Shown: positions 49,701 to 55,700 of the stretch, piece by piece
Position numbering within the stretch: the stretch's first letter is position 1
Layout of the letters: the number at the start of each line of letters is the position of its first letter
NCBI RefSeq assembly: GCF_030013205.1
Contig: NZ_CP122648.1
From: Escherichia coli
GTDB taxonomy: Bacteria; Pseudomonadota; Gammaproteobacteria; Enterobacterales; Enterobacteriaceae
Length of the DNA: 64,000 nucleotides
Strand: one strand, 5' to 3'
Position numbers: made by a program

Positions 49701-52700
49701 CATACATCACGCTGGTAGCTACCGCTTTAACGCGGGTATCCATCGCCGCGTCGTTTAGCGCCATGCCGCCCCAGCCACAAATACCGAGCAGCCCGATACG
49801 GTTGCGATCTACCTCTTTTTGCAGCCCTAAGAAATCCACCGCCGCGCTGAAATCTTCAGTGTTGATATCCGGTGAGGCGACGTTTCGCGGATAGCCGCCG
49901 CTTTCCCCGGTGTAAGAAGGATCGAACGCCAGGGTAACAAACCCTCGTTCCGCCAGCGTCTGCGCATACAAGCCGCTGGATTGCTCTTTCACCGCGCCAA
50001 ATGGCCCACTGACCGCAATCGCCGCCAGCTTGCGATCGCCACGGTCTTTAGGCAGGTAAAGATCGCCCACTAAGGTGATGCCATATCGGTTCGGGAACGA
50101 GACTTTACGGTGATCGACTTTCTGGCTCTCGGCGAACGTTTTATCCCATTTATCTGTCATGGACACAGGGGCATTAGGATTGGTTGAATCAGCATAACTC
50201 ATTGTCGTGACTCCACTTAATGATGCGAAAAGCAGCATGGTCGGCATCGCGGTTTTTAGCGTGCGGGTGAAGGCTTTCATAAAAATCCCCATAAAAAACA
50301 ACAGAGAGATACAGGTTTCCGACGGACAACGCTGCGGTGCTTTACTTTGATGGGGTCATTATAGTGAGCAGAATTAGTGCTGATTAGGGGGCGATTAATG
50401 CTAAGATTAATACCATATTGTTATAAATTAATGCGGAGATTGCCGGCATGAAGGGGGGATGTTTCAATGGCGAAAAGGGAGAACTACAACGAGCTGTACC
50501 TGTTTATGCAGGTGGTGCGGGAAGGCAGCTTTACCGCAGCGGCTCAGCGGCTGGGTCTTGCTCAGTCAGGAGTCAGCCGTTCTGTTCGCGAGCTTGAAGA
50601 AAGGCTGGGCGTCCAGCTGCTAGTGCGCACCACGCGTAAACTGTCGCTGACACAAGCAGGCGAGCAGCTCTACCAGAAGACGGCATCTGGATTTGAAATG
50701 TTAGATCTTGGGCTTGCCACGCTGGCGCACTATCGAGAGACGCCCTCCGGCACGGTGCGTATCAATGCCAGCCAGCACGCGATTGATAAATGCCTGCTGC
50801 CAAAGCTGGCGGTATTTAAACAGAGATATCCTGATATCCGGCTTGAACTGATAAATGAGAGCCGGTTCGTCGATATCATCGAGGAAAGATTCGATGCAGG
50901 TGTCCGCCTGGGGCCTGAAGTCGGCCAGGGTATGGTCGCGGTACGCATCACGCCCGATATGGAGATGGCAATTGTGGGGACTCCGGAACATTTTCGTCGC
51001 TATGGTTTTCCGCAAACCCCGGCGGATTTAAAGGCGCATCCCTGTATCGCCTATCAGTTTGCCGACGGCAGCGTATACCAGTGGGAACTCAATCAGGATG
51101 ATAAAAAAATCACTCATCGCCCTGAAGGGCAATGGGCCCTATCCGACAGCTATATGGAAGCAGAAGCCGCCCGGCTGGGCCTCGGATTGGCCTATGTTCC
51201 TGTTGAACTGGTCGCGGATGATTTAGAACACGGTAAGCTTATCAGGGTGTTGCAGCGTTACAGCCTGCGAATGGAGGGATTGTTTCTCTATTACCCTCAT
51301 CGCAACGTCTCCCCCGCCCTGCGGATGGTCATTGATACATTGAAAATCTGAACGTTAACAACGACCGACTCTTTACTGTGCAATATTGTGTCAGGTAGTC
51401 CCTCTGCGTTCAATTCCAGGGTCTGCTTTGAGCGAGAAAGAGAGGACTATCCAGCAATGGAGATCACCCAAAAGAAAAAACCACCTGGCTCCCTCGACAA
51501 CCTTCATCCGGGCATTGAGCCTCAATCAACATTTTTATATCTGTCAGGTTACTTCATTATGAAAACTGATCATCATCGTTGTTTTTGTTGCAATAGTAGA
51601 ATACGCGTATTTATTCCTCCATCTCTATTAATAACGGCAATAAACTGTTCACTTCACTGATATTTAAAATATGTATCCTTTTCAAGCTGTTCAGCGGCGT
51701 AAGAAAAAGTATTGATTATGAATTCGACGATTTAACCATTTCTGGCTGATTGGTAATCATCTGTGATTAATGCTGGTCTATTGATTACGCCAGCACCCTC
51801 TCTAGCTTATTCACCGCCGCCACATACTTCGCCGGATTTTTATCTTTCAGCACCGCCAGATTACGTTGCTTCCAGCGAATAGCCGGAAGATGCTGAATTT
51901 CAGGATAGCGATACCGCGACCAGTCAGGGCTGTTTTGCTTAAAACTGAGCAAGAACTCGCGATCCAGATCCGTAAGATGTGACTTCAACGCCTGCGGCAG
52001 CAAAGTCGTTACTGACAGCAGCGATTCCAGCGACGTTTCCTGCTGAGTCATCCCCGAAAATTCCTGAGCATACAGCGTCGTGATCCGCTCTATATCCCAG
52101 TTTGGGGCCAGCAACTCGGCAATGGGGCGGGGATGGCCTGCCAGATAACAAAGAAAACCGTCAAAGATCTCCCGCATCAGTCCCGGTTTCTCCAGCATAT
52201 TCAGCACATCAAACAGATCGCGCGGGTGCTGACGATCAAGCGCTGCGCAGATTTTACCGCCATAAAGATCCGCCAGCGAGACGACACTCATGGTGGTGAA
52301 GCCATACTCCATTTCCACACGTTCGCACACAGGCATTTCTGCCGGAGGCAACAACAGCCCGCGCCAGACCGGGCTAACCTCGATCTTAATCTTTGCATCA
52401 GCGGTATTCACAATGATGCGCTTTTCATCCGCTTTATTTTCCTGCCGAATCGCGGTGATCCCCGGTCTGCCGTTCAGCGATGCAGTAATCCTCTTCAAAG
52501 CGTCGTTGATAGCCGCCAGATCAGTATCGCGATCCGCAAAGCTCTTATACGCCAGATCAATATCCACCGACAGACGGGGAAAATCCTGCACAAACAAATT
52601 GATTGCCGTGCCGCCTTTCAACGCGAAACAGGACTCCTTCGCCACATGCGGCAGAGCAGCCATCAACAGCTTAACCTGCCGGGCATAACTATCACGCAGA

Positions 52701-55700
52701 TCCATCTTCGACTCCTTCCGGTTTAAATGCGCGTGGAACAGTAATTTGATAATCCGGCTCCAGCCAGCCGCCGGGTATGATTTGCCGCTTTCCCGTACCT
52801 GTTTCTATACCGCTTTGATCAATATACTGAAAATAAGGGTGTCCATTACGCCGGGCAAGGTAAAGCATCACCCGGTTGGTTTTAACCGAATGACTGGCGC
52901 GAAGCAGTGCCTGCAATTTGCGTGGGCTGAGAAGATTCAACCCCTGAAACAGAGCATCGGCATGTTCGAACGAGATCAACGAAGGAACGCCGCAGGCGAT
53001 CTCATACGCGGCCAGTTCCGGAACACTGCCTGCTAACTGGCAGTCGCCAATTTTTAGTTCCGTAGTCAATGACGTTACATCTACGGTAAGCCCCGATGTA
53101 TACAGCGTGATAAATGTTGCAGATTGTTCGAAGGCAGCAAACCATCCCGGCAGCTTAACGTAAGCCGGAAGCGCGAGCCAGACCTGCGGCCTGCCCGGTT
53201 CGGTATAGTGCGCATGGCCCTGTAGCGCAAGGCTGGTTAGCCCCGCCACCCGAACAGGCTTTTCCCACTGTGTTTGCAGGCAGTAAACCGCGTCTACCCA
53301 ATCCGGCTCACGGCCCGTCCGGCAGTACACGCCGTGAGCGATGCGCCTGAGCCAGCCATTTTGAACATAGAGATAAGAAAGCTTACGATCTACGCCGTTG
53401 CGGGTAAGCCATGACTGGAGCAGCACCTGACCGGGTAGCGTATTTTGCATCAACCAGTTTAGATAGTTTGGCAAATGTCGCTCCTGAATAGACATTAGTA
53501 GAAATATTTAAACCAGTGTAGGTTCAGGGATACGCCACAGCAAGAAATAGTTTACTTATTCCTCATTTTGTCTACTTAAAATTGACATTGAGAAAAAAAT
53601 ACAAACTTACCTACATTCAGGCAAAGTGCGACAAATAGACTCGGTCGGTTTAAAGAGAACGTGTAACATAGATGCAAATCGAATAGACATTGTTGCCAGC
53701 CGTTCCAAGGTTGTGGGGCGCTGCATGGCCTGAGACGTGATAAATACAGGGAACACAATGAAATTCACTGAAGATACCCGAGTAAAAATCCCCGTCATCC
53801 TCCACCTGATACGGCTGGGCTACCACTACCTGTCCCTTAAAGAACAACGCTGGGACAAAGAAACCAATATCTTCCCTGACCTCTTCACCGCTGCGATTGG
53901 CAGAATAAATCCCGGACTTGTGCCAGACGACATCGGACGCCTGTTAAAAGACCTCACGCTGCTTCTCGACAACGATGATCTGGGCCGCGCCTTCTTCGAA
54001 AAACTCAGTGACCGTTCCGGTATCAAACTGATCGACTTTGATAACTTCAACAACAACAGTTTCCATGTCGTCACCGAACTGACCTGCGAAAACGGTGATG
54101 AAGAATTCCGCCCGGACATCACGCTGCTGATCAACGGCATGCCGCTAATCTTTATCGAAGTGAAAAAACCCAACAATCGGGAAGGCATCGTCGCAGAACG
54201 CAACCGCATCAACGAACGCTTTAAAAACCCCAAATTCAAACGCTTCGCCAACATCACCCAGTTCATGATCTTCTCCAATAACATGGAGTATGACGACAGC
54301 GACCCGGAGCCGATTCAAGGGGCATTCTACGCCAGCAGCTCTTACAGCAACCCGGTATTCAACTACTTCCGCGAAGAAGAACTCTTCAACCTGACCAACT
54401 TACTGAAACCGCTGTCAGAAGAAACCGAAATCGCCGTCCTGAAAGACAACAACCTGGAAGTGATCCGCACCAACCCGGAATTTCAGACCAACAAAGATCA
54501 CAACCGCCCGACAAACCGCCTCTGCACCGCGCTGTTGAGCCGGGATCGGCTGGCATTTATCCTGCGCTATGCGCTGGTGTATGTAGCCGAACCGGGCGGC
54601 ATCCAAAAACACATCATGCGCTACCCGCAGCTCTTCGCCACCAAAGCGATTGAGCGCAAACTGAACGTTGGCGTGAAAAAAGGCATTATCTGGCACACCC
54701 AGGGCAGTGGGAAAACCGCATTGGCATACTACAACGTGCGCTTCCTGACAGATTACTTCCAGAATCAGCAGGTGATCCCGAAATTCTACTTTATTGTCGA
54801 TCGCCTTGATCTGCTCCAGCAGGCGCAGCGTGAATTCACCGCCCGTGGCTTAATCGTTCACCTTATCGACTCCCGCGAAGCCTTCACCCGCGATATCAAA
54901 GCGACGCAGGCGCTGCACAACCACCACGGCAAAGCGGAAATCACCGTCGTCAACATCCAGAAATTCCGCGATGACCCGGATGTCGTCACCACCAAAGACT
55001 ACGACATCAACATCCAACGCGTGTACTTCCTCGATGAAGTCCACCGCAGCTACAACCCCAAAGGGAGCTTCCTGGCGAATTTAAGCCAGTCGGACACCAA
55101 CGCCATCAAAATTGGCCTGACCGGTACGCCTCTGCTGGGCACAGACTACAACTCCCGCGACCTCTTCGGCGACTACATCCACAAATACTACTACAACGCC
55201 TCCATTGCCGACGGCTACACGCTGCGCCTGATCCGTGAAGAGATCGCCACCAACTACCGGATGATCCTGCAACAGGCGCTAAAAGACGTAGAAGTCAGAA
55301 TGGGCGATGTGGATCGCAAAGACATCTACGCCCATCCCAGTTTCGTCAAACCGATGCTGAACTACATCGTCACCGACTTTGCCAAAAGCCGGGGCGCACT
55401 GAATGATGACACCATCGGCGGCATGGTGATTTGCGACAGCTCAGAACAGGCCAAGCAGATGTTTGAGATATTCAACACTGACTACGCCGAATCGCCCACC
55501 GCTGCCGATGACGTAGCCGAAGAAATGCCGGTATTACAGGCCGCAGAGCCTGCCGCCGTTTACCAGATCCACGCCAAAGAAACGCGGAAAATCAAACGCG
55601 CCGCCCTGATCCTGCACGACGTCGGCAGCAAGCAGGAGCGCAAAGAATGGGTGGATCAATTCAAAGCGGGCGAGATTGACCTGCTGTTCGTCTACAACAT

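Follow-up and report, generated by a model that had tools for sequence, protein, structure and literature searches.

A probable AbiE toxin–antitoxin module of the AbiEi_3 subfamily on a degraded island of Escherichia coli

AbiE pairs, in which the gene of an antitoxin (AbiEi) is followed on the same strand by that of a nucleotidyltransferase (NTase) toxin (AbiEii), owe their classification as type IV toxin–antitoxin systems to Dy et al. (2014). A 2026 preprint (Arrowsmith) reports that AbiEi of Streptococcus agalactiae binds AbiEii and induces its auto-phosphorylation at T65, and reclassifies AbiE as type VII. Another toxin of this kind, AbiE-T2 of Serratia sp. ATCC 39006, cuts the viability of Escherichia coli 10^6-fold, and rescue is obtained only with its own AbiEi_3-type antitoxin; an activity on tRNA 3′ ends was suggested for it, and S46 was pointed to as the phospho-acceptor position (Hampton et al. 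2020, PMC7725324). Addition of nucleotides to tRNA 3′-CCA ends, with a block of aminoacylation and translation and arrest of growth, has been shown for the toxins MenT1, MenT3 and MenT4; in the case of MenT4 and its antitoxin MenA4, neither complex formation nor phosphorylation was detected and neutralisation is unexplained. Here we analyse a gene pair of this type in a stretch of 64,000 nucleotides of the E. coli chromosome (contig NZ_CP122648.1 of assembly GCF_030013205.1; hereafter the window), 100% identical DNA being present in swine enterotoxigenic E. coli strains. We hold it to be quite probable that the locus is an intact AbiE toxin–antitoxin, or abortive-infection, module of the AbiEi_3 subfamily, situated on a degraded island at a tRNA-Thr gene. 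The type IV label that our first-pass annotation of the window had attached to it follows Dy et al. and is challenged by the preprint's argument for type VII.

This is an ordinary AbiE pair, and the system is both known and already annotated. On identical DNA, RefSeq names the two products ‘nucleotidyl transferase AbiEii/AbiGii toxin family protein’ and ‘type IV toxin-antitoxin system AbiEi family antitoxin’. The locus has little importance beyond annotation, and PGAP, PADLOC and Pfam already recognise the pair. The only additions of our analysis are the architecture of a candidate operator and structural links to MenA4/MenT4.

The two genes and their products

Two minus-strand open reading frames (ORFs) of 306 and 267 aa that share 14 nt had been described in the first pass, and both are confirmed from the sequence. 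The antitoxin gene comes first and the toxin gene follows on the same strand, in the bicistronic order that membership of the AbiE group requires. The toxin gene, abiEii, occupies positions 51785–52705 and encodes a 306-aa NTase of the DUF1814 family. The frame of the antitoxin gene, abiEi, is open up to an ATG at 53495 (52692–53495, 267 aa), but the gene itself most likely covers 52692–53474 (260 aa), as discussed below. Antitoxin stop and toxin start overlap by 14 nt at 52692–52705 (ATGGATCTGCGTGA), and a Shine–Dalgarno sequence, AAGGAG (52717–52712), stands 6 nt ahead of the toxin ATG. The same junction is found at all 10 orthologous loci of other genera, an 8-nt overlap being the rule in most of a more distant clade.

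The 306-aa protein matches the Pfam family AbiEii (PF08843, 7.5e-36) and, over its full length, the PADLOC AbiEii model (3.9e-116). The motif GGTA...R.S.DIDL by which it had first been recognised is present, residues 29–51 reading LKGGTAINLFVQDFPRLSVDIDL. Residue conservation was assessed in an alignment of 52 homologues with identities reaching down to 41%; many of these had been picked from other species as the gene that follows an antitoxin homologue. Invariant in these sequences are G31-G32 of motif I; R44, S46, D48 and D50 of motif II, S46 being the phospho-acceptor position; K107 and E109; K151 and R158 of motif III; and R162-D163-L-F-D166 of motif IV. The toxin conforms to the complete pattern of NTase motifs I–IV (hGG, 15 residues, R..DhD; K..A...R; +DxxD), with 15 residues from GG to DhD and 7 from the Lys to the Arg of motif III (as for K173/R180 of S. 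agalactiae AbiEii), spacings that we read as diagnostic. In S. agalactiae AbiEii, mutating G49/G50, R63, D67, D69, K173, R180 or the +DxxD residues abolishes toxicity; all of these correspond to invariant residues of the E. coli toxin, in which every catalytic residue is kept. Ser46 (RLS46VD48ID50), two residues ahead of the DxD, stands where MenT-type toxins have their Ser/Thr phospho-acceptor and lies at the position of T65 in S. agalactiae AbiEii, S78 in MenT3 and S46 in Serratia AbiE-T2.

As for the antitoxin, the first-pass annotation had thought of AbiEi_4 and had considered the assignment the weaker of the two. The call is in fact strong, because the protein matches AbiEi_3_N (PF17194, 9.8e-29) and AbiEi_3 (PF11459, 3.2e-35) as well as the PADLOC AbiEi model (4.6e-79); with AbiEi_4 the match is only 0.014, and the subfamily is AbiEi_3. 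NCBIfam held no model matching either protein. The start codon also has to be moved from the ATG at 53495 that was proposed at first, whose position reads TTG in 9 of 10 loci of other genera. TTG 53474 is kept in 12 of 12 orthologous loci with a conserved AGGAG or AGAGG 6 nt upstream (here AGGAG, 53481–53485, minus strand), and database homologues are all 257–260 aa long, RefSeq itself annotating 260 aa. Because this TTG and its Shine–Dalgarno sequence are conserved and the ATG is not, and because the homologue lengths agree, we regard an antitoxin of 260 aa starting at TTG 53474 as most likely; the 14-nt overlap is unaffected.

Since sequence and hidden Markov model searches of the PDB returned no match for toxin or antitoxin, predicted structures were used. 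The models show the antitoxin with a predicted AbiEi fold and the toxin with a predicted MenT fold, and MenT4/Rv2827c (MenA4) is the pair that they resemble most closely in structure. The alignment of the antitoxin model to Rv2827c spans 226 residues, and that to AbiEi 181 of the 195 residues of AbiEi. The C-terminal domain of the antitoxin also matches small NTase-fold proteins, which rank after the top two structural matches; the likeness of the AbiEi C-terminal domain to the NTase fold was already described by Beck et al. (2020). A conserved antitoxin loop, G86..H89-Y90, occupies the place of the loop that is essential in AbiEi.

The upstream region and a proposed mode of action

A 57-bp composite palindrome, GTTTA-N14-TGTC-N11-GACA-N14-TAAAC, is present twice near the start of abiEi. 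Each copy consists of two 23-bp inverted arms 11 bp apart, which makes four arms in total, and the number of such palindromes expected by chance in 64 kb is 0, even if 2 mismatches are allowed. The promoter that we propose for the operon (53515–53543, minus strand; −35 TTGCTG at 53543–53538, 17-nt spacer, −10 TACACT at 53520–53515) was assigned by eye from conserved positions in an alignment of 12 orthologous upstream regions. Operator-like site 2 (53457–53513), an exact match to the palindrome, starts directly past the proposed −10 and spans the Shine–Dalgarno sequence, the TTG start and the first abiEi codons; site 1 (53550–53606), with one mismatch, is located farther upstream than the proposed promoter. 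Site 2 is without mismatch in 11 of the 12 orthologous loci, and the inner palindrome of site 1, TGTCGATTTTAAATCGACA, is better preserved in other genera. The right outer half-site of site 2, TAAAC, falls within the [L/I/V]-N-W codons of abiEi, and all 59 loci that have this motif write it with xTA-AAC: Leu and Ile are encoded by CTA, TTA or ATA, and Val, in one case, by GTA. E. coli seldom uses CTA and ATA, and the choice of rare xTA codons at this place points to a constraint acting on the DNA itself.

We also considered site 2 as an mRNA hairpin masking the Shine–Dalgarno sequence and rejected this as the principal reading: with −11.7 kcal/mol (z −1.38) the RNA fold is weak, and 19 of 200 shuffled site 2 sequences fold equally well. 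No Rfam match was obtained over 51300–53900 at E up to 1. Conservation is concentrated in four short half-sites with variable spacers between them, which fits a protein-binding operator. We infer that AbiEi would bind at both palindromes and thereby exert negative autoregulation, and the predicted operator, with its two 57-bp palindromes and defined half-sites, turns this into a directly testable model. The conserved four-arm inverted-repeat architecture, as it appears from the sequence to extend over promoter and start codon, is an addition of this analysis.

How the pair may work can be pictured by analogy with CHARACTERISED relatives. The operon would be transcribed from the promoter just upstream of abiEi and autorepressed by AbiEi, the overlap coupling the translation of the two genes. 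Free AbiEii would use a nucleoside triphosphate to add nucleotides to tRNA 3′-CCA ends, and this would block aminoacylation and translation, resulting in growth arrest. The C-terminal domain of the antitoxin would neutralise the toxin, up to the point where phage infection or loss of the island tips the balance toward active toxin; growth would then stop, and infection be aborted or the loss penalised. For the neutralisation step, the invariant Ser46 and the conserved loop G86..H89-Y90, neither of them decisive, would favour an antitoxin-induced auto-phosphorylation of Ser46. This step may not apply, however, because the closest structural match, MenT4/MenA4, is a pair without detected complex or phosphorylation. 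That the E. coli antitoxin acts in the manner of MenA4, i.e. with no stable complex and no phosphorylation, is conceivable, and we would give it a minor but real chance.

Distribution, selection and island context

An alignment of 19 sequences served as query in a scan of other species, with one genome taken per species, from which we retrieved 80 loci encoding an AbiEi_3 homologue. They are found in Enterobacterales, Legionella, Vibrio, Shewanella, Marinomonas, Pseudomonas, Bacteroidota, Desulfopila and Novosphingobium. An AbiEii homologue directly follows the antitoxin gene on the same strand in 73 of them, the junction being −14 nt in the clade of the E. coli pair and mostly −8 nt outside it, with the remaining pairs separated by a few nt. 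With 73 of 80 loci so arranged, usually with an 8- or 14-nt overlap, the pairing of AbiEi_3 with AbiEii is not due to chance, and gene order and overlap are conserved across phyla. Both genes are under purifying selection, as indicated by dN/dS values of 0.07–0.17 against six orthologues. The AbiEi/AbiEii two-gene module that the first pass had proposed is supported: of the two outcomes that would have spoken against it, an unrelated family for the 267-aa protein and loss of conserved catalytic residues from the 306-aa protein, neither was observed. Two of the AbiEi_3 homologues, at about double the usual length (P0208, 547 aa; P0212, 537 aa), could be natural antitoxin–toxin fusions or gene-calling artefacts. 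Orphan antitoxins, intact beside a truncated or missing toxin, are found at roughly a quarter to one third of the loci with AbiEi_3 (L003, L010, L017, L019, L021, L022, L034 and others).

Within E. coli, 832 of 5426 complete genomes (∼15%) carry the module, strains of the sequence type 131 (ST131) kind included, almost always as a single chromosomal copy and mostly at ∼96% identity. A native pair present in 15% of complete genomes would make a convenient model. One O25:H4 (ST131) genome (NZ_AP022326.1) has its toxin gene split by an insertion of ISEc52. A phage or plasmid origin was rejected, the module occurring in only one E. coli plasmid record and no close homologue of the toxin being found in phage records. 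E. coli also has a second, distinct lineage of AbiEi_3-type antitoxins (cluster P0157, 502 member sequences), 47% identical, which may be that of the AbiE pair beside the capsule (kps) genes of strain CFT073.

Besides the precedent of MenT4/MenA4, several points speak against the picture of an intact module working as outlined. The proposed −35 is weak, and the abiE promoter candidate fails a simple consensus scan. Only 54 of the 80 loci have a full-length toxin, ∼19 having a truncated one and 7 none, so that toxins of the AbiEii family are frequently lost (truncated or missing in about a quarter of related loci). The E. coli toxin itself ends in ...VLA* where orthologues in other genera end in ...VLEQYF*, i.e. 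it is 3 residues shorter (51785–51793), apparently through a change of CAA to TAA. Finally, the AbiE system of S. agalactiae gave no protection against 32 coliphages. The shortened toxin, taken together with the truncated toxins common in the family and the interrupted ST131 gene, might be read as the mark of a decaying, non-functional relic. We find this most improbable, as both frames are intact, all catalytic and near-invariant residues are kept, the dN/dS values are low (see above), the module is carried by hundreds of genomes and RefSeq attaches no pseudogene flag.

The integration site of the island that carries abiE is a tRNA-Thr(CGT) gene at 60917–60992 (minus strand; ARAGORN, RefSeq), adjoined by integrase fragments. 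The island also bears a type I restriction-modification (R-M) operon, hsdR-hsdM-hsdS (53758–59740, plus strand; from ORFs and RefSeq on identical DNA), which belongs to the context and lies outside the AbiE module. hsdR (ATG 53758) is divergent from abiEi, with ∼260–280 bp between the starts, and exactly this junction occurs in 548 E. coli genomes. About a third of the E. coli carriers are without this hsdR beside abiE; in the one that was examined (E. coli YL3, L083 7591–10800), a gene for an RNA-directed DNA polymerase of ∼1070 aa replaces hsdRMS, the abiE side being unchanged and the island again at tRNA-Thr. The slot divergent from abiEi looks like a swappable slot for defence cargo. In other species, abiE is accompanied by no intact hsdR at any of the 80 loci, and at the seven close orthologues whose surroundings were inspected the adjacent genes are unrelated ones, among them integrases, DnaB/ParA genes of SPI-7 type and housekeeping genes. 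An obligatory link of abiE with type I R-M is ruled out by these carriers and loci. Because they lack an intact hsdR, the hsdR neighbourhood is to be seen as belonging to a defence hotspot whose cargo can be exchanged and not to AbiE, in agreement with a published mapping that places AbiEii at a few E. coli hotspots. The divergent hsdR to which the first-pass annotation had drawn attention is therefore real, but it is a property of the island and no general companion of the AbiE system.

Three further observations concern the neighbourhood. Beside the Serratia marcescens orthologue (L011 540–3755) lies a gene for a 1071-aa protein with a weak retron-type reverse-transcriptase match. In Atlantibacter and Affinibrenneria, what is left of the hsdR N-terminus (109 and 22 codons) is divergent from abiEi (L004 3405–3731; L006 and L012 3645–3710), which suggests an older abiE–hsdR cassette whose R-M genes were lost later. 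At 51563–51631 (plus strand), with a LysR-family gene on one side and the toxin gene on the other, the RefSeq annotation has a C-terminal piece of the small membrane protein YkgR; this piece is probably the trace of an old rearrangement junction at the island edge.

A functional coupling of AbiE to the adjacent type I enzyme could nevertheless be imagined. The two divergent units have a common intergenic region, and the sole sigma-70-like match on the plus strand toward hsdR (53588–53617) overlaps site 1, so that AbiEi could in principle also affect hsdR transcription; the toxin, for its part, might be a back-up for the case that a phage disables the enzyme, in the way of PrrC/EcoprrI. The 548 genomes with the exact junction and the hsdR remnants in the two other genera are compatible with such a coupling. 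We consider it very improbable, since about a third of the E. coli carriers lack this hsdR, the abiE side is unchanged in the examined carrier with a reverse transcriptase in the place of hsdRMS, intact hsdR genes are absent from abiE in the 80 loci of other species, the neighbours inspected at close orthologues are unrelated and site 1 is kept, even as a better palindrome, where hsdR is absent. A wider version, in which AbiEi would be a regulator or sensor for whichever defence gene is divergent from it and the toxin a second line of defence coupled, like PrrC/EcoprrI, to the type I enzyme or to the reverse transcriptase that takes its place in other strains, seems to us very improbable.

Another possibility is that the same molecular machine serves to stabilise the island by addiction rather than to defend the cell against phages. 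The position of abiE on a degraded integrative island, beside tRNA-Thr and integrase fragments, would suit this role, as would the integrases and SPI-7-type DnaB/ParA genes next to its orthologues and the failure of S. agalactiae AbiE to protect E. coli from the 32 coliphages; an AbiE system is reported to stabilise an integrative and conjugative element in Streptococcus suis. On the other side, the adjoining slot holds defence cargo, whether type I R-M or reverse transcriptase; AbiE of Lactococcus lactis and other DUF1814 systems protect against phage; and a different E. coli AbiE, that of CFT073, altered the susceptibility to some BASEL phages (PMC12488582). We rate a pure addiction role as possible though doubtful, and the two roles are not mutually exclusive.

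Comparison with known systems

The AbiEi_3 subfamily is common in Enterobacterales and has received almost no biochemical study, the only tested case that we found in the literature being AbiE-2 (AbiE-A2/AbiE-T2) of Serratia sp. ATCC 39006. That system is of the same subfamily as the E. coli pair: an AbiEi_3-type antitoxin is followed by an AbiEii of ∼305 aa with Ser46, and the genes overlap. Locus L015, from Prodigiosinella confusarubida LacA, is presumably this system: the strain name agrees, AbiE-A2 is likewise of the AbiEi_3 family, Ser46 is present and the chromosome position is compatible with the locus-tag numbers. Its toxin is 56% and its antitoxin 47% identical to those of the E. coli pair, and Serratia AbiE-2 appears to be the closest tested relative. 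Both have GTTTA/TAAAC elements in the upstream region and within the first codons. The two differ in that the overlap at L015 is 8 nt instead of 14, the repeat layout is another, without the TGTC-N11-GACA core, and the genomic location is not the same.

With the MenA4–MenT4 pair of Mycobacterium tuberculosis (Rv2827c–Rv2826c), its closest structural match, the E. coli pair has a sequence identity of just 13–15%. In the Rv2827c promoter, 23-bp repeats form two pairs, each with a 13-bp gap, to which Rv2827c binds to repress its own operon, and the same four-arm design is seen here. The spacing is different: in E. coli the arms of a repeat pair are separated by 11 bp and the pairs by 36 bp, compared with 13 bp and 4 bp in the mycobacterial promoter. 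The E. coli pair could help to settle whether AbiE is generally type VII, i.e. whether its Ser46 is phosphorylated or the system is MenT4-like. Compared with the prototype AbiEi of S. agalactiae, which belongs to AbiEi_4/COG5340 and not to AbiEi_3, the E. coli antitoxin is ∼65 aa longer; the identity between the systems is ∼10%, and where the S. agalactiae operator has two arms, the layout in E. coli extends to four.

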